Below are positions 1 to 12,078 of a DNA stretch of 12,078 bases, in pieces. Both the position numbers and the translations under genes were made by a program. Where the stretch lies: IMG/VR virus record IMGVR_UViG_2537562220_000015. One strand, written 5' to 3'. The stretch comes from a virus (taxonomy: Duplodnaviria; Heunggongvirae; Uroviricota; Caudoviricetes). The notes under the pieces are model-generated. The model made no database searches and was not told the DNA's origin. It saw only the letters and a list, made by a program, of their open reading frames with translations. The first letter of the stretch is position 1; each line of letters starts with the position of its first letter.

Positions 1-348
1 TCCATCGACAAGACGCAATCTCTTTCCGCTTGTACAACCCGTAACTGCGGCGCGTACAGCAAGTGTTTGTGCGGCAAGTATGCCAAACCAGTCGGCGGCA
101 TTCCGCAGCCGCTTCAGGAGAGCCACGTCAGATAATGTTGCAACGTCATGGAGCTGAGCCCATGCAGTGACTTCACGTAATGACATCCCCCCGGGGCCGT
201 AAGCCAGCCCCAGACGTAGCAGAGTTGCAGCATCACGAATTTCGCGGCGGCGGGTTAGAGCCCCGGCATTACGTGCCGAAGTATCCAGTTCTTCGGGCTT
301 ACCAATATGGGCCAGAATTGCTGACCAGTTATCGTGAGAGTAATTCAT
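1..348 (-). CDS. insL: IS186 transposase, N-terminal ~116 codons (gene continues beyond window start)
   Basis: Reverse complement of 301-348 translates to MNYSHDNWSAILAHIG. The frame is open to position 1. It was not in the ORF track because it is cut by the window edge. Confidence 0.8.
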   Translation of the reverse strand, partial: MNYSHDNWSAILAHIGKPEELDTSARNAGALTRRREIRDAATLLRLGLAYGPGGMSLREVTAWAQLHDVATLSDVALLKRLRNAADWFGILAAQTLAVRAAVTGCTSGKRLRLVDG

Positions 349-380
349 CGGCACGTTAAATCATATCAGGCGTAATACCA

Positions 381-403
381 CAACCCTTAAGTTAGCGCTT
401 ATG
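381..403. repeat. IS186 terminal inverted repeat (element end)
   Basis: caacccttaagttagcgcttatg lies ~35 bp outside the transposase start, as expected for an IS end. It is followed by G/C-rich ggcattacccccgac, consistent with the known GC-rich target preference of IS186. Confidence 0.7.
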
Positions 404-494
404 GGCATTACCCCCGACAGATCACAAAGCAGACTGGAATGATTACCACCAAAAACACGGCATTAAATGCGCCACAGAAGCGTTCAATAAGTCA

Positions 495-2267
495 ATGTAC
501 CAACCACAGGGTAATGGCGTGAAACAGGAGCCACAGACCATTGAGGGAAGCGATTTTAAGGTTATGGATACCGACCCACTGAAACCAAGAATAGAAAGCC
601 GCGAGGATGGTATTTATTGGGTATCTCCGAGAGCTGACAGCCAGAGTGGAGAAATCATCAATAACGAAAGCTGGTTATGTTCTCCGTTAAGCGTTATCGG
701 TACTGGCAGAGACGATAAAGACCAGTATCTCATTCTTCGCTGGCTGTCGTTTGGTTCTGAAACGCCGACAACCGCTGCCATTCCACTGGCTGATATTGGT
801 GAACGTGAAGGATGGCGCACACTTAAAGCTGGTGGGGTAAATGTCACGACCAAAAGCAGCCTCAGAGCAATACTGGCAGACTGGCTACAACGCAGTGGCT
901 CTCGTGAATTGTGGCGTGTTGCTCATGCCACTGGCTGGCAATGCGGAGCGTACATCATGCCTGATGGGGAAATCATCGGAACACCTGAAAATCCTGTGCT
1001 GTTCAGCGGGAGAAGCTCAGCCGCAGCCGGATATACCGTCTCAGGGAGCGCGAAAAGCTGGCGTGATAACGTGGCGCGTCTGGCCTTTGGTAACTATTCA
1101 ATGATGACCGGGATCGGCGCAGCACTGGCAGCGCCATTGATTGGGCTGGTGGGCGCTGACGGGTTCGGCATTCATTTCTATGAGCAGTCGAGCGCAGGTA
1201 AGACCACCACGGCAAACGTGGCGAGCAGCTTATACGGCAACCCTGATTTACTGCGGCTGACGTGGTACGGAACCGCGCTGGGGCTGGCAAATGAGGCCGC
1301 CGCCCACAATGACGGACTAATGCCGCTTGATGAAGTTGGTCAGGGCGCTGATCCTGTCAGCGTTTCACAGTCTGCCTATGCGTTATTTAACGGTGTAGGG
1401 AAACTGCAAGGCGCTAAAGATGGTGGAAACCGGGATCTAAAACGCTGGCGTACAGTGGCAATCAGCACCGGAGAAATGGATTTAGAAACATTTATCGCTA
1501 CTTCCGGGCGAAAAACCAAAGCCGGGCAACTGGTGCGACTGCTGAATATTCCGTTGAGTAAAGCAGTACGCTTTCACGATTACCAGAACGGAAAACAGCA
1601 CGCAGACGCACTGAAAGACGCTTACCAGCATCACCACGGCGCGTCCGGGCGTGAGTGGATTAAATGGCTGGCACACCACCAGCAACAGGCTATTAAAACC
1701 GTTCGTGATTGCGAAAGCAGATGGAGAAGCCTGATCCCATCCGATTATGGTGAGCAGGTTCACCGTGTAGCCGCGCGATTTGCCATTCTGGAGGCCGCAT
1801 TGTTGTTAGGCGAGGTTGTAACAGGCTGGGATGCTCAGACATGCCGTGATGCGATACAGCACAGCTATAACGCATGGTTGCGCGAGTTCGGCACAGGTAA
1901 CAAAGAGCATCAGCAGATTATTGAACAAACGGAGGCATTTCTTAATGCCTATGGGCTTAGCCGTTTTGCACCATTTCCATACAGCCCGGCAGATTTGCCC
2001 ATCAAAGATTTAGCCGGATACCGTCAGCGTGGAGAACATGACGAAAGCCCAATGATTTTCTACACATTCCCGGCCACATTTGAAAAGGAGATCGCATGTG
2101 GTTTCAACGCAAAACAGTTTGCTGAAGTGTTGAAAAAAGCCGGGATGCTAACCCCACCAAACAGCGGTCGTGGATACCAAAGAAAATCACCACGTATTCA
2201 GGGACGACAAATAAACGTTTATGTACTCAATTACCAGCCAGGAGATTATAACTCATCTGAAGAATGA
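495..2267 (+). CDS. Replicative primase/helicase-like protein (phage P4 alpha-like / satellite Pri-Rep type), probably the 3' portion of an IS186-interrupted gene
   Basis: 590-aa ORF with a Walker A-like P-loop (GIHFYEQSSAGKTT) about 225 residues in, then a long C-terminal region as expected for a DNA-binding/origin-recognition domain. The frame is open with no stop from the IS186 end (404) to the ATG at 495. No convincing SD precedes the ATG. Confidence 0.6.
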   Translation: MYQPQGNGVKQEPQTIEGSDFKVMDTDPLKPRIESREDGIYWVSPRADSQSGEIINNESWLCSPLSVIGTGRDDKDQYLILRWLSFGSETPTTAAIPLADIGEREGWRTLKAGGVNVTTKSSLRAILADWLQRSGSRELWRVAHATGWQCGAYIMPDGEIIGTPENPVLFSGRSSAAAGYTVSGSAKSWRDNVARLAFGNYSMMTGIGAALAAPLIGLVGADGFGIHFYEQSSAGKTTTANVASSLYGNPDLLRLTWYGTALGLANEAAAHNDGLMPLDEVGQGADPVSVSQSAYALFNGVGKLQGAKDGGNRDLKRWRTVAISTGEMDLETFIATSGRKTKAGQLVRLLNIPLSKAVRFHDYQNGKQHADALKDAYQHHHGASGREWIKWLAHHQQQAIKTVRDCESRWRSLIPSDYGEQVHRVAARFAILEAALLLGEVVTGWDAQTCRDAIQHSYNAWLREFGTGNKEHQQIIEQTEAFLNAYGLSRFAPFPYSPADLPIKDLAGYRQRGEHDESPMIFYTFPATFEKEIACGFNAKQFAEVLKKAGMLTPPNSGRGYQRKSPRIQGRQINVYVLNYQPGDYNSSEE

Positions 2268-2285
2268 GCTTCTTCATGTGCGTAG

Positions 2286-2403
2286 AAAAGGTGTTGGTTC
2301 AGTTGGTTCAGTTGGTTCAATTTGTAAAGTGTATTGTTTTATAAGGATTTTATTCTTTTTATTGAACCAACACTGAACCAACAACACGGTATTTTGAACC
2401 AAC
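2286..2403. repeat. Iteron cluster 1: three tandem 9-bp GTTGGTTCA repeats (2293-2319), AT-rich spacer, three inverted TGAACCAAC copies (2363-2371, 2374-2382, 2395-2403); candidate origin/operator
   Basis: Direct reading of the sequence. It sits immediately downstream of the primase/helicase gene, the position where satellite and plasmid replicons commonly place an iteron origin. Confidence 0.7.
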
Positions 2404-2723
2404 ACAATGTGACTGAATTGATGCGCACAACACCTGGCTGGCATCAGAGAGTGTTTTACGAGACTTTCGTAAAATCCTGTGTACAAGGGCGTGACGTTTT
2501 TGAAAGTGAGCACTACGAAATTTTCGTAGTTCAAAAAACAGCCTCTGAGAAGTTGTTATGCCTGTTCAGCAAACCATCCGCATAGCTGATCGCGAATCAA
2601 ATTACCAATGGAGCCAGAAGCAAGGGCAGAACTGAAAAGCGCCTGCCGTGAAGAGTAATGCGACACCATAAATATAGTTTTTAGAGTCCATAAAAAACCT
2701 GTCAAAACCTGACACACAGAACG

Positions 2724-2757
2724 ATGCCACCAGCTACTGAGCGGTGGCATTTTTTTG
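2724..2757 (+). terminator. Rho-independent terminator
   Basis: Perfect 8-bp stem ATGCCACC/GGTGGCAT (2724-2731 and 2743-2750) with an 11-nt loop, followed by TTTTTTT (2751-2757). It is oriented for plus-strand transcripts. Confidence 0.6.
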
Positions 2758-2851
2758 TGCTATTTGTTTCATATTTTGCAATTACTATGATGAATATTGC
2801 GATTTGTGAAACTATAATAACTGTTGTTTTATACAGTTCTAAGGGGGCGTT

Positions 2852-3013
2852 ATGGCTATTTCAGTAAAGCCGGTATTGATAAGTGAGAAGCAAATGGAAG
2901 CGATAAAGAAAATTCAGGAAGAGCAGCGTAAAAAATCAGGAATTGGAGTAGCGCCAACTCTGCATGAAATTGCACGAGGGTTAATAGATAAGGCGCTGGC
3001 AGGCTGTATGTGA
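2852..3013 (+). CDS. Small hypothetical protein (53 aa), possibly a ribbon-helix-helix-like DNA-binding protein; first gene of the downstream operon
   Basis: ATG at 2852 is preceded by a strong SD (AAGGGGG, 2841-2847) at ~5-nt spacing; stop TGA at 3011-3013. It translates to MAISVKPVLISEKQMEAIKKIQEEQRKKSGIGVAPTLHEIARGLIDKALAGCM. It is absent from the ORF track, presumably because it is short. An AT-rich promoter-like region lies upstream (2760-2840). Confidence 0.4.
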   Translation: MAISVKPVLISEKQMEAIKKIQEEQRKKSGIGVAPTLHEIARGLIDKALAGCM

Positions 3014-3029
3014 AAATGGATGGCATCGC

Positions 3030-3491
3030 ATGGAACTAAAATTTATTGATAACCCTGTGCGATTACAGGCCTTTCTTAACGATCCTGGCAATACCGAAAA
3101 TATTGTTGAGCCGGGGCACACGTACTACATCAAGCCTGATGCGGTATATCTCGGCATCTACGAAGGATTGGTGTTGGCTGGCGTTCATGAAGTGCGTAAC
3201 TTCTGGCATAGCATTGTTGAATGCCATGCGGTGTACGACCCCGGATTCCGTGGTGAATATGCACTGCAAGGGCATCGGTTATTCTGCAAATGGCTTCTCG
3301 AAAACTCACCATTCCTTAACAGCATTACCATGGTTCCTGACACCACCAAATACGGACGGGCAATTATCCGTTTGCTTGGCGCTACCCGTGTTGGTCACCT
3401 TGATGATGCTTATATCAGATGTGGTAAACCCGTCGGCGTAACGCTTTATCAGTTAACTCGGCAACAATATAAGGAATTCAGCGAATGTTAA
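3030..3491 (+). CDS. Phage head-assembly/ejection-associated protein, P22 gp14-like (tentative)
   Basis: 153-aa ORF 16 nt after the small ORF. Its stop overlaps the start of the next gene. The assignment rests mainly on its position directly upstream of the gp7/gp20/gp16-like trio, which matches the P22 gene order 14-7-20-16. Confidence 0.5.
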   Translation: MELKFIDNPVRLQAFLNDPGNTENIVEPGHTYYIKPDAVYLGIYEGLVLAGVHEVRNFWHSIVECHAVYDPGFRGEYALQGHRLFCKWLLENSPFLNSITMVPDTTKYGRAIIRLLGATRVGHLDDAYIRCGKPVGVTLYQLTRQQYKEFSEC

Positions 3492-4162
3492 TTACCCACA
3501 TAGCTCATAAACATCTCAATCGTGCCGTATACGAAAAAGGCGGTGATGGTGGTGCCTCTAAAGCTCAGGCGAAGGCCCAGCAGCAGGCAATTGATTTGCA
3601 GCGCGAGCAGTGGAATACGGTGATGAATAATCTCAAGCCGTATGCAGAAGTCGGATTGCCTGCTTTACAACAACTACAAGGACTGATGACTCTGGAAGGG
3701 CAGAATAAAGCCGCGAATGATTTCTTTGGTTCTGGTTTATATAAAACACAGGCAGATCAGGCCCGTTATCAGAACCTTGTCTCAGCAGAAGCTACCGGGG
3801 GGCTTGGCTCAACAGCTACCAGTAACCAGTTATCTTCCATTGCGCCCATGCTTTATAACAATTGGCTTAGTGGGCAAATGCAAAATTATGGAAACCTGCT
3901 AAATGTCGGGATGAATGCGGCATCAGGGCAGGCAACAGCAGGGCAAAACTACGCCAATAATACCGGGCAACTCTTGCAGGGGCTTGGCGCTATTCGAGCA
4001 GGTCAGGCGCAGCAGCCATCCAGTCTTGCGCGTGGTATTGGTGGGGCGGCATCAGGCGCTTTAGCGGGTGCGCAACTTGGTTCCGTTGTTCCGGGTATAG
4101 GTAATGTCGCCGGGGCTATTGGTGGTGGGCTTATTGGTCTTGTTGGGGGGCTTGGATTCTAA
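3485..4162 (+). CDS. Phage ejection (DNA transfer/injection) protein, P22 gp7-like
   Basis: 225 aa, close to the size I recall for P22 gp7 (~229 aa). Gln/Ala-rich N-terminal part and Gly-rich hydrophobic C-terminus (GIGNVAGAIGGGLIGLVGGLGF). The stop overlaps the next start (TAATG). Confidence 0.65.
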   Translation: MLITHIAHKHLNRAVYEKGGDGGASKAQAKAQQQAIDLQREQWNTVMNNLKPYAEVGLPALQQLQGLMTLEGQNKAANDFFGSGLYKTQADQARYQNLVSAEATGGLGSTATSNQLSSIAPMLYNNWLSGQMQNYGNLLNVGMNAASGQATAGQNYANNTGQLLQGLGAIRAGQAQQPSSLARGIGGAASGALAGAQLGSVVPGIGNVAGAIGGGLIGLVGGLGF

Positions 4163-5583
4163 TGGCGACATGGCAACTTGGCGGGCTGCCTAGCATGGCA
4201 CCGCAAAATGATAATGCTCCTCGTTCTTCCGTTCCTCAGCCTGTGCAGTATCAGCAGCAGCCAAACGTAGGTTTAATGGCGCTACAGGGGCTAAGAGGCG
4301 TTGCTGAGATTAATCAGCAGGCACGTCAACAACAGCGTAAAGCAGAGTTTCAGAAAGCATATGCCGGGGCTTTTGAGTCTGGAGACAGAAACAAAATGCG
4401 CAGTCTTATTTCTGAGTATCCAGAAGAATTTGAAAGCGTTCAGAAAGGGATGGGCTTTATTGATGACGACCAGAGAAATTCTATTGGTCATCTTGCGACT
4501 AGTGCTCAAATCGCATCTTCGCTCGGAACTGGGGCATTTGGAAAATTCATAGCAGATAACGAAGATGAAATGCGTCGCTTGGGAATTTCTCCTGAGTCTG
4601 TTGCCGAAATGCATGTTAATGATCCACAGGGATTCCAGCGGCTTGCTGGTAGTATGGCACTGTTTTCTCTCGGTCATGAGAAGTATTTCGATATCAAAGA
4701 TCAAATGGAAGGTCGGGATATTGAGCGTGGCAAGTTGGCAGAAACAATCCGCAGCAATCAGGCTGGCGAAGCACTTCAGGCGAGAGGGCAGGATATTAGC
4801 CGAGCAAATGCGTTAACGTCAGCATATGCACCAACAGCAGCAATGCAGAATTACAATCAGTACGCTCAAATGTTAAAGGAGGATCCAGAGGGGGCGGCGG
4901 CATTTGCGGCAGCGGCTGGAATTAATACAAACGCCAAAAAATTAATGAGTGTTAGAGAAAACGATGATGGCACTGTCACAAAATACTACACAGACGGAAG
5001 TGAAGAGCAGGGAAAACTAACCCAGCCAATATCTGGAGATGGGTTTCGTCCAATAGCTTTGCCAACAGCCCAAAAGATCATGGAAAAGTCGCCAGAAGGG
5101 GCTAAAAAAGCTGCTGGATTTGCATACAGGGTTAGGGATGCTCTTGATTCAATAGATACACTGAAAGACCAGCTTAGCCCACAGCGAGTGGCGATCATTA
5201 ATAATGCTTTGGGTAATGGGACGTTGGCTAACTTAACGCTCAGCCCAACAGAGCAGCAATACGTTGTTAATGCTAATGACGCAATAATGGCAATACTCCG
5301 TCAGGAAACAGGGGCAGCTATCGTACCTGCTGAAATGTCAAAATATTATCAAATGTATTTCCCTCAGCCTGGCGACTCCACAAAAACCATTGATACCAAG
5401 CGCCTGAAGATGGAAAACCAGTTCAATTCGCTGAAAGCTGCTTCTGGTCGAGCTTATGATGCTTTGCGGGTTATTTCAGCAGTTGACAGAGGAACTTCTT
5501 CTTCGTCGCAGACATTGCCGCAATCTGAGCAGGTATCACAGCCAGCAGCCAGCAGTAACTTTTCTTCACTATGGGGTGATTAA
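4162..5583 (+). CDS. Phage ejection (DNA transfer) protein, P22 gp20-like
   Basis: 473 aa, close to the size I recall for P22 gp20 (~471 aa). Translationally coupled at both ends (TAATG overlaps at 4160-4164 and 5581-5585). Codon usage matches its neighbours. Confidence 0.65.
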   Translation: MATWQLGGLPSMAPQNDNAPRSSVPQPVQYQQQPNVGLMALQGLRGVAEINQQARQQQRKAEFQKAYAGAFESGDRNKMRSLISEYPEEFESVQKGMGFIDDDQRNSIGHLATSAQIASSLGTGAFGKFIADNEDEMRRLGISPESVAEMHVNDPQGFQRLAGSMALFSLGHEKYFDIKDQMEGRDIERGKLAETIRSNQAGEALQARGQDISRANALTSAYAPTAAMQNYNQYAQMLKEDPEGAAAFAAAAGINTNAKKLMSVRENDDGTVTKYYTDGSEEQGKLTQPISGDGFRPIALPTAQKIMEKSPEGAKKAAGFAYRVRDALDSIDTLKDQLSPQRVAIINNALGNGTLANLTLSPTEQQYVVNANDAIMAILRQETGAAIVPAEMSKYYQMYFPQPGDSTKTIDTKRLKMENQFNSLKAASGRAYDALRVISAVDRGTSSSSQTLPQSEQVSQPAASSNFSSLWGD

Positions 5584-7688
5584 TGGCTAAAGCATGGAAA
5601 GATGTTATCGCCTCTCCACAGTATCAGGCGTTAGCACCAGAACAAAAAGCGCAGGCTCAGGAGCAATACTTCAATGAAGTCGTTGCCCCGCAAGCCGGAG
5701 AAAGTGTAGAGCAGGCTAAGCAGGCTTTTTATGCTGCCTATCCACTACCATCAACGAATGAAATAGACCGAGCCCAATCAGCAACTCAAAATATTCAACA
5801 TACATCATCTGATAATTCTCTTGCGTCAGGGTATGCAAAGTTAGCTACTCAGCAAAGAGAGGGGCTTGAGCGTTCAGCAGAACAGGGAGCCAGCCTTGGG
5901 GCTGCGATGCGCGATGCTATAACAGGCGAAAGCCGAATGACTCCAGAGATGGAGAGACTGCAAAATGTCGACCTTGCCCCAGAGTTAACCTCACTCAGCA
6001 TGGATGCTCTAAAAGCTCGATGGTCTCAACTTTTCGGCTCTGACGCATCTCAGGAAAAGATTCTTCAGAGCATGGGAGCGAAATTAAGGCAGGATGAGAA
6101 GGGTAACACTATCGTTTCCCTGCCATCCGGTGATTATGCTCTGAACAAGCCGGGTTTATCGCCGCAAGACGTGGCATCGTTTCTGGCTAATGCGCTGGCG
6201 TTTACACCAGCGGGCAGGGCCGGAACGGTGCTGGGGGCCATAGGGAAATCAGCAGCTACAGATTTAGCACTACAGGGAGCCACCAGCCTCGCTGGTGGAG
6301 AAGATATTGATCCGTTACAAACGGTAATTTCTGCTGGCATTGGTGGTATTGGTAAGGGGCTGGAAAATACAGCGAGTGCGGTTTCGAGGGCTGTTCGTGG
6401 TGATATGTCGCCTGAAGCAAAGGCTGCTGTCGACTTTGCATCGGAAAGAAATCTGCCGTTAATGACCAGTGACATGCTGAAAGATAAAACCTTTATGCAG
6501 AGTCAGGCTCAGACATTAGGCGAAAGAGTTCCTTTTTTTGGAACCGGTAAGAATCGGCTGAATCAACAACAAGCACGAGAAAATTTAGTCAGAACATTTA
6601 GCGATGGTCTGGGTGGCATTTCTGATAAACAGCTTTATGAATCTGCGACTAAAGGGCAACAAAAATTCATTGAGGCAGCAGGAAAGCGATATAACCGCAT
6701 AATTGACGCTATGGGGGATACCCCTGTCGATCTCTCAAACACGGTAAAAGCTATCGACAATCAGATTGCTGTGTTAAGCCGCCCGGGTAAATCTCAGGAT
6801 AGAGCCGCGGTAAAAGTCTTGCAGCAATTTAAAGACGATATCACCAGCGGACCAAATGACCTGCGTCTGGCGAGGGAAAACAGAACCGATCTTCGAAAGC
6901 GGTTTATGGCGTCATCTGACACTGTTGATAAAGATACGCTCCAGAAAGCCAGCGATATTATCTACAAGGCATATACGGCGGATATGAAAAAAGCCGTAGC
7001 CAAAAATCTTGGAGCAGACGAAGCCATTAATATGGCAAGGGTTGATCGCTCATGGTCTAAATTCAATGACATGATGGGAAGAACGCGCGTTCAAAAGGCA
7101 ATAGCCAGCGGCAAGGCCACGCCTGAGGATGTAACAAAACTCGTTTTTAGCCAAAGCCCATCAGAACGTTCTCAGCTTTACAGGCTTCTGGATGACAATG
7201 GTAGGCAAAACGCACGAGCAGCCATAGTTCAGAATGCTGTAGATAAGGCGACTGATCCGTCTGGAAATATCAGTGTTGAGAAGTTTATTAATGCGTTACA
7301 CCGGAACAGGAAGCAATCAGCAACTTTCTTTAAAGGCGTACATGGAAAGGAACTGGACGGCGTTATTAAATACCTCAACGATACAAGACACGCGGCAAAA
7401 GCGAACGTTCAAAACTTAAATGGTCAGCAGCTTTATGGATTGTTAGTTGGTGGTGGCATCATAAACGCAGCAGTATTAGCGGGGATGCTAAAAACGGCTG
7501 CGTTTGTTGTTCCTGCTGCTGGTGCCGTAGGCGGAGCAGCGAAGGCATACGAAAGCCCTGTTATACGAAATGCCTTGTTACGTCTGGCAAATACGCCAAA
7601 AGGTAGCACAGCATATGACAGAGCGATCAGTACGGTCACACAATCGCTCACCAGAGTCGCACAGGCATCACAAAAAGAAGCTCAATAA
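5583..7688 (+). CDS. Phage ejection (DNA transfer) protein, P22 gp16-like
   Basis: 701-aa ORF, last of the coupled gene set. It has a Gly/Ala-rich hydrophobic segment near the C-terminus (LLVGGGIINAAVLAGMLKTAAFVVPAAGAVGGAAKA). Its position after the gp7/gp20-like genes matches the P22 order. Confidence 0.65.
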   Translation: MAKAWKDVIASPQYQALAPEQKAQAQEQYFNEVVAPQAGESVEQAKQAFYAAYPLPSTNEIDRAQSATQNIQHTSSDNSLASGYAKLATQQREGLERSAEQGASLGAAMRDAITGESRMTPEMERLQNVDLAPELTSLSMDALKARWSQLFGSDASQEKILQSMGAKLRQDEKGNTIVSLPSGDYALNKPGLSPQDVASFLANALAFTPAGRAGTVLGAIGKSAATDLALQGATSLAGGEDIDPLQTVISAGIGGIGKGLENTASAVSRAVRGDMSPEAKAAVDFASERNLPLMTSDMLKDKTFMQSQAQTLGERVPFFGTGKNRLNQQQARENLVRTFSDGLGGISDKQLYESATKGQQKFIEAAGKRYNRIIDAMGDTPVDLSNTVKAIDNQIAVLSRPGKSQDRAAVKVLQQFKDDITSGPNDLRLARENRTDLRKRFMASSDTVDKDTLQKASDIIYKAYTADMKKAVAKNLGADEAINMARVDRSWSKFNDMMGRTRVQKAIASGKATPEDVTKLVFSQSPSERSQLYRLLDDNGRQNARAAIVQNAVDKATDPSGNISVEKFINALHRNRKQSATFFKGVHGKELDGVIKYLNDTRHAAKANVQNLNGQQLYGLLVGGGIINAAVLAGMLKTAAFVVPAAGAVGGAAKAYESPVIRNALLRLANTPKGSTAYDRAISTVTQSLTRVAQASQKEAQ

Positions 7689-7706
7689 CTGGTAGCCATG
7701 GATGGC

Positions 7707-8321
7707 TTAGATATCTCTGCTGTCTCCATTAGGAAATAAAAGATAATATGGATTTGCCTTTCTTGCTCTCCTTGCTTCACCTGGATACCTGTTAGTCAGT
7801 AGTTTGCATAATGAGCAGAGAACAACACTCAAGAAAATTCCGAATGAGAAGATCAATATCTCACCAAAAATCAATGGCGATATTAAATTTTCAGGATTTA
7901 ATGATAAGTCAATGTTAAAAACATATTGAGCAATACCAGTAAGTATCAATAATATAATCCCTATGGAATACATTGCTGTTTCCCAAACATCAGACAGTCT
8001 ATTTTTGAATTGTTCGCTGGAGTAGTAGTTTGTTATAAAGTCAGAAAAATCACTCTCATATGCATCATCTTTAGGTGATGTTAGAAATCCTCTGTCTCTC
8101 CATACCTTCTCCCAATTAGTCGATTCTTTTTTTAAGGAAAAATAAATATGTATTGCCAAAAGGATAGCCAAAATTGGTGTTAGCTCTAAAAAATAGAATG
8201 TTATGGAATAAATAATACTGCCATGTTCAAACTCATCTGGGACTATCATGTATGCACAAAAATAAATTGAAAAGTACACCATGCAGATAGTTAGCAATTC
8301 TTTAGTATCTTTTCTGCTCAC
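7707..8321 (-). CDS. AT-rich multi-pass inner-membrane protein; candidate superinfection-exclusion or abortive-infection effector
   Basis: 204-aa ORF with a GTG start at 8319-8321 preceded by a strong SD (AAAGGGGG on the coding strand, ~5-nt spacer). It has at least four hydrophobic helices and a ~70-residue charged loop. GC content is clearly lower than the flanking genes (roughly one third by eye versus about half). It is convergent with the ejection operon, 18 bp from its stop. Confidence 0.6.
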   Translation of the reverse strand: MSRKDTKELLTICMVYFSIYFCAYMIVPDEFEHGSIIYSITFYFLELTPILAILLAIHIYFSLKKESTNWEKVWRDRGFLTSPKDDAYESDFSDFITNYYSSEQFKNRLSDVWETAMYSIGIILLILTGIAQYVFNIDLSLNPENLISPLIFGEILIFSFGIFLSVVLCSLCKLLTNRYPGEARRARKANPYYLLFPNGDSRDI

Positions 8322-8538
8322 ACCAACCCCCTTTAGCGTTGTTTAGAATGGCAATCATCATATATCCAAGACATGGCATTTGGTACATAGCTTGGGTCGG
8401 GATTTCAAATCCGATCCCCGTTGATGGGGCCGTTACAGTACGCGCATATCCGCTTTATGTGAAACAGGAAGATTTTTCTGATATCACTGCCACAGCAAAA
8501 CACCAATTTCGTGACCAGTACGCGCGCGAGGGGTATCA

Positions 8539-8557
8539 GTTGCAAAAATTTTGCAAC
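8539..8557. promoter_or_regulatory. Near-perfect palindrome GTTGCAAAA-A-TTTTGCAAC (9-bp arms around one central base); candidate operator
   Basis: Read directly from the sequence. It is flanked on both sides by copies of the GACCAGTACGC(G/A)C(G/A)CG motif (8513-8528 and 8565-8580). Confidence 0.3.
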
Positions 8558-9066
8558 TACGTCCGACCAGTACGCACACGATGGCGGGGGATACCATGAA
8601 ACTGTTCTCTACACGAGACAGAGTGGTGGTGATGTGTTGATTATCGGCGTATATGCGCACAGGACGCGCTATGACGATGTTTTATGCGGGTACACCAATC
8701 ACATGTATCTGATGTGATAAATCGTGTTACATGACATCTCATGTTGTGCTGGTGGTTATCACGACGTTCTGAATCTGGCCTTTGCCTGATATTTTGCGAC
8801 AAGTACGCGCGCGTAGCATCGAAATTATCGGATGGCGTATGCTGCTGGCAATATGAAGACCGATAGTATTAACCGAAAAGCGATTAAGGAGTGCCAACTT
8901 TTCAGTAGAGAAACTAGCCAGCATAGGAAAATGTAGAAATTACCCAATTAATAGGTAAAAGTTATTGACACAGCCTGTAGTGGATAACGATATGAATAAA
9001 AACCACATATAGTGGTTTTTCGTGAGTGATGATAGTATCTATGTTAGTTTCCTAAGTAACTGTGCA

Positions 9067-9095
9067 TTGACATGTGGATAACTTCGGATAGAGTT
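9067..9095 (+). promoter_or_regulatory. Putative sigma70 promoter for the Abi_2 gene (TTGACA-N16/17-TAGAGT) with an embedded DnaA-box-like TGTGGATAA
   Basis: TTGACA at 9067-9072 and TAGAGT-like -10 around 9089-9095. TGTGGATAA (9073-9081) is the exact complement of the DnaA box consensus TTATNCACA. A similar TTGACA...GTGGATAAC module recurs at 8965-8988. Confidence 0.25.
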
Positions 9096-9190
9096 ACAGG
9101 CAACCGAGCCCGATCCTCTGTTTCTCCGCCGCCGATTTTAGGCATGTGAGTTTCACGGTCGGGCCTTTTATTATCTTTTGTTTCGCCACT

Positions 9191-10168
9191 ATGATTGCCG
9201 CAAAGCCTCATAAGGACTATCACGAATTGCTAGGATTGCTACTTGAACGTGGCATGATTATCAATGATCGAAATCGTGCGATACGTAAGCTGTCGCAGGT
9301 TGGATATTATCGATTGTCAGGTTTTTGGTACCCATCAAGAATTATTGCGACAACAGATAAAGGTCTTTCGTACAGAACAGACCGATTTCTTGCTGGTACC
9401 AGTTTCGAGAAGACGTACGATCTATATCTTTTTGACAAAAAACTGCGTCTTTTGATGATTGATGCTATCGAAAGAATAGAGATTCATGTTCGTTCAGTCA
9501 TCGCGCATGAGGTTGGTCGCAATGATCCACTTGCCTACATGTCATCAAAATACATTAATCCAAAATTCTCATCTGCCTTCGAGCATTGGGTGTATAAGCA
9601 AAAAGTAAAATTAGACGAAAGCAGAGATGACTGTATTGAATGGCATCGAAGCCAAGGCAAGGAGATTCCATTTTGGGTGGCGGTGGAGACCTGGGATTTT
9701 GGTCAGATGTCTAAATATTATGCGATGCTTAATGGTCATATGCATGGGAAAATTATACGTCGTTTTGGCATTGATAATAAGCAGACATTTGCAAAATGGT
9801 TGAAGTGCCTTAATCTCATAAGGAATCGTTGCGCTCACCATTCCAGAATATGGAATAGAAAGCATCCCCGAGTTCCAGTACCGGATAATGAATACTTTGA
9901 CGGACTTAATCTCCATCCAGAGAGTTGCGAGAGGATTTTTAGCGCGATCTGTATTATCTGGTACTTAGTTAAACGACTTGGTCCGGGATCAACATGGCTT
10001 CGGCAAATTGCAGACCTTATTGACTCTAAACCAAATGTTCCCGGATGTGGATATGATTCAATGGGTTTACCTGCTAAAGGATTCCCACGAGAGAGATTCT
10101 CTCAGGACTTAGGTTTTGTTATCGCCGACAACGACCCTGTAGCTGAAGGGCGGAAAGGGAGCGATTGA
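9191..10168 (+). CDS. Abi_2 family (AbiD/AbiF-like) abortive-infection protein with a HEPN-type Rx4H motif
   Basis: Contains NLIRNRCAHHSRIWNRK, the conserved Abi_2/HEPN signature as I recall it (R-x4-H within RNRCAH). The N-terminal region KDYHELLGLLLERGMIINDRNRAIRKLSQVGYYRLSGFWYP matches the AbiD-family N-terminal pattern. I prefer the ATG at 9191 (MIAAKPHKDY...) over the longer track ORF starting at 9146, whose 15 extra residues are hydrophobic and not family-like. Neither start has a clear SD. Confidence 0.7.
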   Translation: MIAAKPHKDYHELLGLLLERGMIINDRNRAIRKLSQVGYYRLSGFWYPSRIIATTDKGLSYRTDRFLAGTSFEKTYDLYLFDKKLRLLMIDAIERIEIHVRSVIAHEVGRNDPLAYMSSKYINPKFSSAFEHWVYKQKVKLDESRDDCIEWHRSQGKEIPFWVAVETWDFGQMSKYYAMLNGHMHGKIIRRFGIDNKQTFAKWLKCLNLIRNRCAHHSRIWNRKHPRVPVPDNEYFDGLNLHPESCERIFSAICIIWYLVKRLGPGSTWLRQIADLIDSKPNVPGCGYDSMGLPAKGFPRERFSQDLGFVIADNDPVAEGRKGSD

Positions 10169-10197
10169 GCGATAAATATCATTTATACACTGATCAA

Positions 10198-10638
10198 TTA
10201 CTGAAGCAGCGTATTGATTCTTTTAATATTGTTACCCTGACGCTTCCACGCGCTGTAAATGTCTTTATCCCACGCTTTACCAGCTTTTGTTTGGTAGCCT
10301 GCTTCATTGAGCCGTTCCGCTATCACACGCCCATTATCAAATCCCTGTCGGATGGTATCGGCAATGATCTTTATAACTGCCGTTTCGTTATATGGCTTTG
10401 GTGGGATGTTCGGCTTTCCGGCAATAAGCGACGCAGCGGCTTTTTCCATGCGCTCCACCAGCCCAAGCATTCGTGAATCAATAGACTTTTCCGGCTGTCC
10501 CAGCTTCATGCGAATCGCATCAACAAGCCAGGAGGTTTTATCCCCTCCAGAAGCGAGAACAGACCGATTAAACTCATCCTGCAATTCAGATGGGATGCGG
10601 AACGCGACCAGATTAGATTTGCTCATTGCAAAGACCAT
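10198..10638 (-). CDS. Ribbon-helix-helix (Arc/Mnt-like) transcriptional regulator with a C-terminal extension
   Basis: The N-terminus LVAFRIPSELQDEFNRSVLASGGDKTSWLVDAIRMKL follows the Arc/Mnt RHH pattern (beta-strand, helix, G-containing turn, helix). The ~90-residue C-terminal extension contains a GYQTKAGKAWDKDIY segment reminiscent of recombinase/regulator DNA-binding modules. It is convergent with the Abi_2 gene (29-bp gap). Confidence 0.6.
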   Translation of the reverse strand: MVFAMSKSNLVAFRIPSELQDEFNRSVLASGGDKTSWLVDAIRMKLGQPEKSIDSRMLGLVERMEKAAASLIAGKPNIPPKPYNETAVIKIIADTIRQGFDNGRVIAERLNEAGYQTKAGKAWDKDIYSAWKRQGNNIKRINTLLQ

Positions 10639-10657
10639 ATCAGTGAGTAATATCCAT

Positions 10658-10687
10658 ACAGTATACCACTGTATAACACTGTTATAC
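10658..10687. promoter_or_regulatory. Three tandem ~10-bp repeats (ACAGTATACC / ACTGTATAAC / ACTGTTATAC) in the promoter region of the RHH gene; candidate autoregulatory operator
   Basis: Read directly from the sequence, 20-50 bp upstream of the RHH start. RHH repressors typically bind tandem or inverted short repeats. Confidence 0.35.
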
Positions 10688-10740
10688 GCTCAAATATCAG
10701 CCAGAAAATAACGGACCAATCACAAAGCTATCGCTGTGTT

Positions 10741-10868
10741 GTTGGTTCAGAGCTGGGCTGTGTTGGTTCAAAATGAGTTGATGTTGGTTCAATATTTCAG
10801 AAAAAACACAATAAAAACAACGATCTTTACAAATTGAACCAACTGAACCAACTGAACCAACACCTTTT
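10741..10868. repeat. Iteron cluster 2: three spaced GTTGGTTCA copies (10741-10749, 10762-10770, 10783-10791), AT-rich spacer, three tandem TGAACCAAC copies (10835-10861). Region 10825-10868 is the exact reverse complement of 2286-2329
   Basis: Direct comparison: the reverse complement of 10825-10868 is aaaaggtgttggttcagttggttcagttggttcaatttgtaaag, identical to 2286-2329 (44/44). The whole cluster is organised as the mirror image of cluster 1. Confidence 0.75.
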
Positions 10869-10897
10869 TGCTTATCTATATAATCTGAGAGGCAGAA

Positions 10898-11185
10898 ATG
10901 ATAAGGGACAGGAAAGCTGAAGAACTGGAGTCAAAAGGGCTATACCGGAGAGCTGCCGCACGATGGGCAGAAGTCATGATGCTGGCAGATGGCGATAAAG
11001 AACGTGAACATGCAGCAAACAGACGCTCTGAATGTATCCGTAAGGCGGCACGCCCACCAGCAACTACAGACAGATTCGGAGATTTAAGACAGGCAGTTAA
11101 GCGGACTCATTCGGCTCTTGGTATGGATGAGGAAGCGAGAGGGTATTTCAGGCGTTATCGCGATAAAGATTGCCAGAGACAGTAA
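10898..11185 (+). CDS. PerC-family transcriptional regulator (PerC/Pch-like)
   Basis: 95-aa ORF with an SD (GAGAGG) 5-8 nt upstream. MIRDRKAEELESKGLYRRAAARWAEVM... resembles the N-terminal signature of PerC/Pch activators of EPEC/EHEC (a conserved ...ELE.KGL(Y/W)RRAA.RW.(E/D)VM motif, from memory). Confidence 0.6.
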   Translation: MIRDRKAEELESKGLYRRAAARWAEVMMLADGDKEREHAANRRSECIRKAARPPATTDRFGDLRQAVKRTHSALGMDEEARGYFRRYRDKDCQRQ

Positions 11186-11258
11186 TGCTCTCTCTGTTTT
11201 GGCAAATTACCCCTCACTTTGAAGGGATCGGAGCTATAAAAATGGTGTTATCCGGCTT

Positions 11259-11276
11259 CCTGCATTGCAGGTTTTC
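11259..11276 (+). terminator. Weak candidate intrinsic terminator downstream of the PerC-like gene
   Basis: Short hairpin CCTGC-att-GCAGG followed by TTTT (11272-11275). The stem is short, so this is tentative. Confidence 0.25.
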
Positions 11277-11667
11277 GAAAGAATCAATGGGTTAGGTTAT
11301 CGTGCAAATTTGCACTCTGCCAGCCAACGCAATTTCTCGTTGGCGGAAATATCAGGTATTTACTGAACGAACGGTCTACCCGCCTGTTCAACTACCAGTT
11401 GTACATGGCTGCTTTATGTGCAAATGGTGGTGAGAGAAAATTGTTTGGGGGTACTTTTGGGGGTATCTCCAAAGATGTAACTGGAAAATGTCTTTATATA
11501 TCAATGTATTTTTATTGTTTGTTTTGTTCCTATTATCGCCATTAAAATCAAAGAGTTACCCCATATTTAAATACACCACGTTTCCTCCTGTGCCGTATTT
11601 GTGCCATTGTAACCTTGGCAATTCATCAAAATACTGTTCTGACATCAGGCAGTGCAGGTGCAGACAT

Positions 11668-12078
11668 TTAAGCCAATTGCTGCCGCCATTCTTTGACGTA
11701 GTCAATCAGGGCGCGGAGCTTTGGTGCAATATTGCGACGCTGTGGGAAATACAGATAGAAGCCCGGAAATTGTGGAAGAAAGTCATCAAGCAGCGATACA
11801 AGCTTACCGCTTTCAATATATGGCCTGAAAGTTTCCTGAGTGGCAATTGTTATTCCTCCGCCGGCAAGAGCCAGCCTCAACATCAGACGCAGATCATTAG
11901 TCGTAATCTGCGGTTCAATCGCAAGGTCGAAAGTTCTCCCGTTTTCTTCAAATGGCCAGCGATAAGGCGCAACCTCCGGGGACTGACGCCAGCCGATACA
12001 CTTATGGGTATTTCCCCCGGAGGCGAGAAAGCGCTCTCCACGCCCGGCCGCAAGGATCAGGACGACGGGGGCAGGCAT
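11668..12078 (-). CDS. LysR-family transcriptional regulator, C-terminal substrate-binding portion (gene starts beyond the window end)
   Basis: ...FDLAIEPQITTNDLRLMLRLALAGGGITIATQETFRPYIESGKLVSLLDDFLPQFPGFYLYFPQRRNIAPKLRALIDYVKEW is a typical LysR C-terminal effector-domain pattern. The Met at the window edge is probably internal. It is likely a chromosomal core gene at the island boundary. Confidence 0.6.
   Translation of the reverse strand: MPAPVVLILAAGRGERFLASGGNTHKCIGWRQSPEVAPYRWPFEENGRTFDLAIEPQITTNDLRLMLRLALAGGGITIATQETFRPYIESGKLVSLLDDFLPQFPGFYLYFPQRRNIAPKLRALIDYVKEWRQQLA

Follow-up and report, generated by a model that had tools for sequence, protein, structure and literature searches.

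The stretch of DNA analysed here (12,078 nucleotides, IMG/VR virus record IMGVR_UViG_2537562220_000015, referred to below as the window) is the right part of a phage-inducible chromosomal island (PICI) integrated at thrW. It resembles EcCIMP1, the island of Escherichia coli MP1 which is mobilised by the P22-like phage Kapi1 (Pick, Stadel, Raivio, ISME J 2025, PMC11773190). Near its right end the island carries a gene of the perC family (10898–11185, plus strand, encoding 95 aa), and directly upstream of this gene lies a cluster of short repeats (C2, 10741–10861). Judged by its sequence, C2 repeats the whole origin module of the island (C1, 2293–2403) in inverted orientation, and the pair brackets the variable cargo. 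Taking the evidence as a whole, the best explanation, to which we give an even chance, is that C2 represents a second, inverted origin copy with the −35 region of a perC promoter inside its last repeat, through which the replication initiator would affect perC transcription.

The two modules were defined by their exact 9-mers and by the inverted repeat which they form. The 9-mer TGAACCAAC is present in 12 exact copies, six at 10741–10861 and six at 2293–2403, and is found nowhere else in the window. When up to one mismatch was allowed, 18 matches were counted (2.8 expected), a number reached by none of 200 shuffled sequences. C1 starts 26 bp past the stop codon of the primase/helicase gene and consists of three tandem copies of GTTGGTTCA, the minus-strand form of TGAACCAAC (2293–2319), an AT-rich spacer and three spaced copies of TGAACCAAC (2363, 2374 and 2395). 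C2 begins on its left with three copies of GTTGGTTCA at 21-bp spacing (10741, 10762 and 10783), followed by an AT-rich spacer and three head-to-tail copies of TGAACCAAC on the plus strand (10835–10861). The arms of the C1/C2 inverted repeat comprise 55 nt with 93% identity. An iteron cluster directly upstream of a PerC gene had been proposed in an original prediction made from the sequence; the six exact copies at 10741–10861 confirm it. The prediction missed that this cluster is one of two inverted origin modules.

In their account of the replication origin of PICIs, Fillol-Salom et al. (2018, PMC6092414) describe two iteron sets with an AT-rich region between them, located 3' of pri-rep, and such a layout was shown to support replication for EcCICFT073. 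C1 fits this canonical origin of PICIs and Staphylococcus aureus pathogenicity islands exactly, and C2 has the same internal layout. The family represented by the window differs in having two modules, in inverted orientation, whereas that account names as PICI origin only the stretch which immediately follows the replication gene on its 3' side. The EcCIMP1 paper (PMC11773190) mentions neither an origin nor repeats, and a search of the literature for the repeat sequence led to unrelated primers and oligonucleotides only. Scanned in full against Rfam, the window gave nothing but spurious matches to miRNA models, at both palindromic clusters. We regard the second inverted origin copy beside perC as modestly new; the gene and the island type were already known and annotated.

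Relatives were fetched with an alignment of PerC homologues and with homologues of the 146-aa protein encoded divergently from perC (Enterobacterales), and are cited by their locus numbers (L001 and following) where these are needed. A scan of genome contigs with the single protein found no relatives, but the alignment-based scan did. The C1/C2 pair was seen in elements of eight enterobacterial genera, with the modules either adjacent or split. Pairs built from the same repeat are present in E. coli MP1, Salmonella, Serratia, Klebsiella, Pantoea, Lonsdalea and Yersinia. The modules are separated by 6–9 kb of cargo in some relatives and by only about 90 bp in Yersinia. In Enterobacter islands, C1 is directly followed by a second repeat array which ends in a tandem triplet. 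All repeats of Enterobacter L009, including the triplet, read TGAGACAAC instead of TGAACCAAC, a coordinated change of the kind to be expected from repeats recognised by one and the same protein. Just past the C2 tandem triplet, ten aligned loci share a conserved ACAC-N7-9-TATATA box, which Yersinia has as well.

The circular plasmid record NZ_CP148430.1 (12,152 bp, L004) is a small EcCIMP1-like island with an identical perC. It has the primase, both clusters and the 146-aa gene, lacks the ejection, SieA-like and Abi genes described below, and has a different integrase. C1 and C2 are 1.9 kb apart in this element; the intervening DNA contains a 53-aa open reading frame (ORF) and the 146-aa gene, and perC comes after C2. 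As both clusters are kept without the cargo, the two-cluster design is a core feature, and window positions 3000–9977 are cargo inserted between the clusters. The record may represent an excised or episomal satellite captured by assembly; perC and int share a strand of its circle, with about 0.7 kb between them.

The position of perC relative to the replication module varies. At 12 of the 14 species-level loci from the PerC-alignment set, perC is located at most about 1.3 kb downstream of the replication gene and on the same strand, the exceptions being two Citrobacter braakii loci. It is always oriented away from the repeats, and in roughly half the relatives examined it immediately adjoins an origin cluster. 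It directly follows the C2 box in the window, in MP1, in the 12-kb relative L004 and in Enterobacter L013, while in L009 and L010 an ssb-like gene is located between box and perC. In Lonsdalea, Pantoea and Erwinia, perC comes directly after the spaced side of C1. Between origin and perC, Salmonella and E. ruysiae have a proQ-like gene and E. albertii has both an ssb-like and a proQ-like gene. Three E. coli elements of different composition have kept the C2–perC junction, from the tandem triplet to perC, intact.

In satellite P4, too, one short repeat forms two separate clusters in both orientations, and one of these clusters is immediately 3' of the primase/helicase gene. The P4 record places crr, with type-1 repeats, directly 3' of the alpha gene, and ori, with repeats of the same type, at a distance of about 4.5 kb. 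P4 ori is intergenic, flanked by a leftward regulator gene and the rightward gene sid; C2 likewise has a small leftward regulator gene on one side and a gene reading rightward on the other. However, the repeat sequences differ, each cluster of the window is a full PICI-type origin copy and, unlike in P4, the clusters can be adjacent, as in Yersinia and Enterobacter. When P4 alpha was aligned with the island primase, only the N-terminal primase domain matched, with 34% identity across 359 aa, and no alignment was obtained for the helicase and C-terminal parts. Because of this restriction to the N-terminal domain, we use P4 as a working analogy and do not propose membership.

An invertible switch was considered as a further role for the inverted repeats. 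Among 5,426 complete E. coli genomes, none matched contiguously a chimeric query built to read as the inverted isomer would (primase end, cluster and divergent gene), so we do not consider the repeats to be a flip switch. In strain 99-3165 (L001, NZ_CP029981.1, 12925–17876), an inverted part of the island, bordered by two IS1 copies, carries the Abi gene, the 146-aa gene, C2, perC and attR; the primase gene of this strain's island is truncated. This arrangement is an IS1-mediated rearrangement and not the product of recombination between the repeat clusters.

The conserved box occupies the region between C2 and perC (10862–10897, plus strand), as found by alignment of loci and promoter scanning. 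It holds a candidate −10 element for perC, TATAAT (10879–10884), and a Shine–Dalgarno sequence, GAGAGG (10887–10892). TATAAT was the one perfect −10 element in a relaxed scan and is 17 bp past the last repeat; the corresponding −35 position lies inside this repeat and is a poor element (CCAACA). An initiator bound to the tandem triplet would cover the −35 region, which makes control of perC by the initiator plausible and lends support to the original suggestion that perC expression is tied to the replication state. Read-through from the primase operon is unlikely to supply perC transcripts, since an intrinsic-terminator-like hairpin with a T-run, found by terminator scanning (2733–2755, plus strand), would end that operon and the 146-aa gene converges on the cargo operon. 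A promoter within 10639–10897 would thus be needed. A consensus promoter scan of 2260–3040 gave no site. About 330 bp between C1 and the hairpin (2404–2755) are without a convincing ORF and gave nothing in Rfam; they belong to a segment (404–3000) which is 98.7% identical in L004. This stretch could encode a non-coding transcript or be just the end of the primase operon.

The arrangement resembles that of plasmid-iteron promoters, in which the −10 element directly follows tandem initiator-type repeats and the −35 element overlaps a repeat. Promoters embedded in plasmid iterons and repressed by the initiator are exemplified by that of P1 repA within incC. In contrast to these cases, an accessory regulator would be controlled here instead of the initiator itself, and the promoter is a candidate. 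According to the mechanism which we propose, both modules would be bound by the primase/helicase initiator of the island, as P4 alpha binds ori and crr, and perC would be transcribed from its own promoter, for which TATAAT at 10879–10884 is the best candidate. The upkeep of the pair in eight genera and the coordinated change of the repeats in L009 lend indirect support to a P4-like use of both clusters. Upon helper-phage induction the initiator would occupy C2 and thereby alter perC transcription, the likeliest effect being repression by occlusion in the manner of the plasmid promoters. The chances that perC is coupled to the replication initiator in such a way appear roughly balanced.

Several observations weigh against a perC promoter in the last repeat of C2. 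At its threshold of 9 out of 12 matches, the consensus promoter scan found no site in 10100–11700. A transcript starting after TATAAT would have a leader of about 6–8 nt and would lose part of the Shine–Dalgarno sequence. The box is also present where no rightward gene follows it, in Salmonella, Pantoea, Klebsiella, Serratia and Lonsdalea, and may therefore be a part of the origin and not a promoter. As perC follows C1 without the box in Pantoea, Erwinia and Lonsdalea, its adjacency to the repeats could simply mirror gene order. Further, the roles of the clusters in binding, replication and expression are deduced from sequence, and no origin is named in the EcCIMP1 paper.

The failure of the consensus scan, the box without a following gene and the boxless position after C1, together with the position of perC after ssb or proQ in other islands, favour an explanation in which the adjacency has no regulatory meaning. 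C2 would then serve replication only, as a second origin or a crr-like enhancer, and perC would be weakly constitutive, driven by a weak promoter of its own. We consider this possible, although it is not the explanation we prefer: it does not account well for the separation of perC from the primase operon in the window, for the location of the sole perfect −10 element just past the last repeat, or for the intact triplet–perC junction in the three E. coli elements.

It is rather unlikely that C1 and C2 mainly act as conserved flanks through which related islands swap the cargo cassette by homologous exchange, marking a defence/accessory hotspot, or that C2 is a decaying relic. Homology to MP1 and to the 12-kb relative does break inside the cargo and resume at C2, and the cargo varies among relatives while the clusters persist. 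Decay is at odds with the six exact 9-mers of C2 in both E. coli and Salmonella and with an architecture kept in eight genera, and no inversion isomer was found in the 5,426 E. coli genomes. A role as flank would, moreover, be compatible with a second inverted origin copy and does not replace it.

The second-origin reading can be extended to a more speculative model, to which we assign a low probability. The origin would be split into two inverted parts, C1 behind the primase gene and C2 at the far end of the cargo, with the cargo looped or paired by the initiator in the manner of P4 ori/crr, and C2 would serve as an initiator-controlled divergent promoter, so that PerC, a probable modulator of the nucleoid or of H-NS, would be switched between the quiescent and the replicating state. 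After circularisation, transcription leaving C2 could then proceed across attP towards int.

The gene divergent from perC (10198–10638, minus strand) was recognised by its homologues and by profile alignments. It encodes a DNA-binding-type protein of 142–146 aa with homologues widespread in Enterobacterales. The ATG at 10626 is probably the true start, since the homologues begin with MSKS. Original assignment of this protein to the ribbon-helix-helix (RHH) class is plausible and draws weak support from the sequence comparisons, while the gene itself is real and widely conserved. No Pfam domain was found in the 146-aa protein; among 22 members of its family, one matched Pfam RHH_1 (E=0.2). Alignment of its N-terminus by hhalign to Arc and Mnt was in register, with a probability of only 6–7%, and one database source labels a homologue 'Arc-like'. 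An AlphaFold2 monomer model has low confidence for residues 1–70 and no strand there. The C-terminal half is confidently modelled and weakly resembles helix-turn-helix (HTH) domains of the recombinase type. Foldseek gave no significant match for the model, a weak one being to the DNA-binding region of a serine integrase, and a sequence search of solved structures gave no match. Residues from about 80 to 145 are nearly invariant across Enterobacterales (DNGRIIAERLNEAGYQTKAGKAWDKDIYSAWKRQ).

Inverted-repeat analysis of the region upstream of the 146-aa gene revealed two overlapping perfect palindromes (10656–10687), ATACAGT-N5-ACTGTAT (10656–10674) and GTATAACA-N1-TGTTATAC (10671–10687), which are probably an autoregulatory operator. 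The original prediction had noted tandem ACTGTATA repeats; an operator-like repeat is indeed present, in the form of these palindromes and not as a tandem. On the minus strand, an extended −10 element (TGgTATACT, about 10657–10668) ranks as the best promoter; its location inside the palindromes suggests autoregulation of the 146-aa gene. The same palindrome pattern directly upstream of this gene was found in Salmonella, Klebsiella and Serratia, and in Klebsiella C2 is about 550 bp away from the palindromes, across intervening alpA-like genes. In EcCIMP1, alpA_1 takes the place of the 146-aa gene and the palindromes are absent, and its cluster–perC junction is unchanged. The palindromes thus travel with the 146-aa gene as its operator and do not appear to be a conserved control element of perC, contrary to the earlier proposal that the divergent gene's operator governs perC. 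The 10-bp unit CCACTGTATA in the operator region of the window (10663–10672) is absent from L004 (8360–8390), its presence or absence changing the number and spacing of half-sites. Upstream of the 53-aa ORF (2815–2840), a TATAAT box is overlapped by the inverted repeat AACTGT-N8-ACAGTT. This region shares the 8-mer TATACAGT, located by motif search at 2830–2837, with the operator of the 146-aa gene; two copies were found in the window versus 0.23 expected, and five of 200 shuffles reached two. As the 8-mer is present in both upstream regions, the same protein might control the cargo operon.

PerC-family membership of the protein encoded at 10898–11185, as originally proposed, is borne out by Pfam and PHROG matches and by alignment of homologues. 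The match to Pfam PerC (PF06069) has 114.6 bits (cutoff 22.6, E=2.6e-33) and is full length, aligning residues 1–89 to positions 1–89 of the 90-position model. The identical RefSeq protein WP_000617439.1 is annotated as PerC family transcriptional regulator; the top PHROG match is phrog_994, with weaker ones in families labelled as transcriptional activators. Across 21 aligned PerC homologues, D4, K6–E8, L10–E11, G14–A20, R22–W23 and C46 are invariant. The PerC of the per operon, encoded beside perB on an EAF-type (EPEC adherence factor) plasmid of enteropathogenic E. coli (EPEC), was left out of this alignment; it shares 44% identity over residues 2–89 with the window protein and departs from it at a few of the invariant positions. 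EPEC PerC and the prophage-encoded Pch proteins of enterohaemorrhagic E. coli (EHEC) have the family, a similar length and the N-terminal motif KAExLExKGxYRRAA in common with it. Their genes are located in the per operon or in lambdoid prophages, whereas the window gene lies in the origin region of a satellite.

The closest tested homologue is EcCIMP1_025 (54% identity overall), which shares the first 23 residues with the window protein and diverges thereafter. By sequence, the window gene is an allelic variant of EcCIMP1_025 and adds an allele to a known family. Over C2 and the initial 80 bp of perC (10761–10978), identity to EcCIMP1 is 90%, and this mosaic junction within perC suggests that recombination in the conserved 5' part replaced the allele. 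As modelled by AlphaFold2, the window PerC has three confident N-terminal helices (predicted local distance difference test about 90) and no HTH or recognisable DNA-binding fold. Foldseek found no significant match to this model, only weak ones resembling tetratricopeptide repeats, and a sequence search of solved structures found none. PerC probably works through protein or nucleoid contacts and not through a classical DNA-binding fold. A marginal terminator-like hairpin (CCTGC-ATT-GCAGG followed by TTTT; 11259–11275, plus strand), seen by eye and below the threshold of the scanner, lies about 75 nt beyond the perC stop codon.

The designation as an LEE (locus of enterocyte effacement) activator, which had been attached to the gene, is not supported. 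It goes back to activation of the LEE1/ler promoter, from which the family has its name. Overexpression of EcCIMP1_025 silenced a LEE1-lux fusion in Citrobacter rodentium, whereas EPEC PerC activated it (Pick et al., 2025, PMC11773190). For the PerC-like genes of EcCICFT073 and EcCIEDL933, that paper cites Porter (2005) as reporting them to be inert. In view of the repression by EcCIMP1_025, 'LEE activator' is an unsafe label for the window PerC. A LEE-specific role is unlikely, since islands of Pantoea, Erwinia and Lonsdalea have a homologous perC in the same position. The close linkage of perC to the replication module, together with its occurrence in plant-associated genera, points to a role in the life cycle of the satellite itself and not in LEE control. 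The EHEC homologue Pch has been reported to relieve H-NS silencing by displacing H-NS. Taken together, the action of Pch on H-NS, the modelled fold, the behaviour of EcCIMP1_025 and the occurrence in plant-associated genera favour a PerC role tied to the island or its helper phage. The model of a PerC/Pch-type LEE activator whose expression is set jointly by a divergent RHH repressor and the replication repeats is therefore improbable: the family assignment is solid, the operator palindromes are only about 55 bp from C2 and some hosts with genomes of 5.7–5.9 Mb might be LEE-positive pathotypes, but identity to EPEC PerC is only 44%, the tested or cited PICI homologues are repressing or inert, plant-associated genera have islands with perC so placed, the operator travels together with the 146-aa gene and the RHH assignment is weak.

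The identity of the island rests on gene order, attachment (att) core and insertion site, and the satellite-like character originally proposed is thereby borne out. The whole window was found in complete E. coli genomes at 99.8% identity, inserted at thrW between proA and yagU. Full copies contain, from the left, attL, the integrase gene, an HTH gene (alpA), antA/B, ash, small ORFs and the gene for a primase with TOPRIM and DUF927 domains. These are followed by the 53-aa ORF, a DUF2824 gene and homologues of P22 gp7, gp20 and gp16, and on the right by genes for a membrane protein and an Abi_2 protein, the 146-aa gene, perC and attR. The right boundary is marked by the attR core TCCTATTATC (11528–11537, plus strand), as given by Pick et al.; the full-length copy L002 has an integrase, with TCCTATTATC at both ends. 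The HTH protein WP_000035054.1 follows int in L002 and in MP1. The element thus has the features of a PICI: an integrase at one end, direct att repeats at a specific site, an alpA-type regulator after int, and pri-rep followed by an origin with two iteron sets (C1).

EcCIMP1 has the same insertion site and att core and the same order of integrase, alpA, antA/B, ash, TOPRIM-DUF927 primase, 53-aa ORF, DUF2824 and gp7. The primase part encoded by the window has 99.7% amino-acid identity to that of EcCIMP1, both repeat clusters are present and the C2–perC junction is identical. Homology extends over window positions 404–4322, breaks in the cargo and resumes at 10761–10978, the cargo diverging from the gp20 homologue onward. 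The SieA-like gene, the Abi_2 gene and the 146-aa divergent gene of the window island distinguish it from EcCIMP1. Helper-phage-dependent excision, replication and transfer have been reported for EcCIMP1 with Kapi1 only (PMC11773190).

Within the window, pri-rep is represented by the C-terminal 590 aa of the TOPRIM and DUF927 primase/helicase (495–2267, plus strand; Pfam DUF927 E=1.5e-47, PHROG DNA primase E=2.9e-144), which has 918 aa in complete copies; the RefSeq annotation in L002 agrees. The conserved 53-aa ORF (2852–3013, plus strand) is the first of the cargo operon and was identified by its homologues in relatives (L003–L005, L010, L013–L016 and also L025); by eye, its sequence pattern appears RHH-like. 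It is followed by homologues of P22-type DNA ejection and head proteins, identified by profile matches (DUF2824, gp7, a gp20-like translocase and a gp16-like protein; 3030–7688, plus strand). RefSeq flags the gp16 homologue as a pseudogene in one genome. Further cargo genes encode a membrane protein weakly similar to the superinfection exclusion protein SieA (7707–8321, minus strand; PHROG 7745, E=4.4e-4) and a protein of the Abi_2 abortive-infection family (9146–10168, plus strand; Pfam PF07751, E=8.1e-52). With ejection homologues, a SieA-like and an Abi_2 protein, the cargo suits a helper of the P22 type and agrees with the superinfection immunity that EcCIMP1 is reported to confer. Several related islands have at their right end a conserved gene for about 120–130 aa (MRMT.RKKEILSY...) which points towards C2 or perC; it is present in L022 (9223–9612), with homologues in L007, L008 and L011 and a further candidate possibly in L003 (1420–1779). 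No Pfam match was found for it in L022 and relatives.

PerC-family genes are routinely labelled as virulence activators. A duplicated inverted origin, if functional, would extend the ori/crr principle of P4 to PICIs and could help to explain how these elements keep and exchange their accessory and defence cargo.

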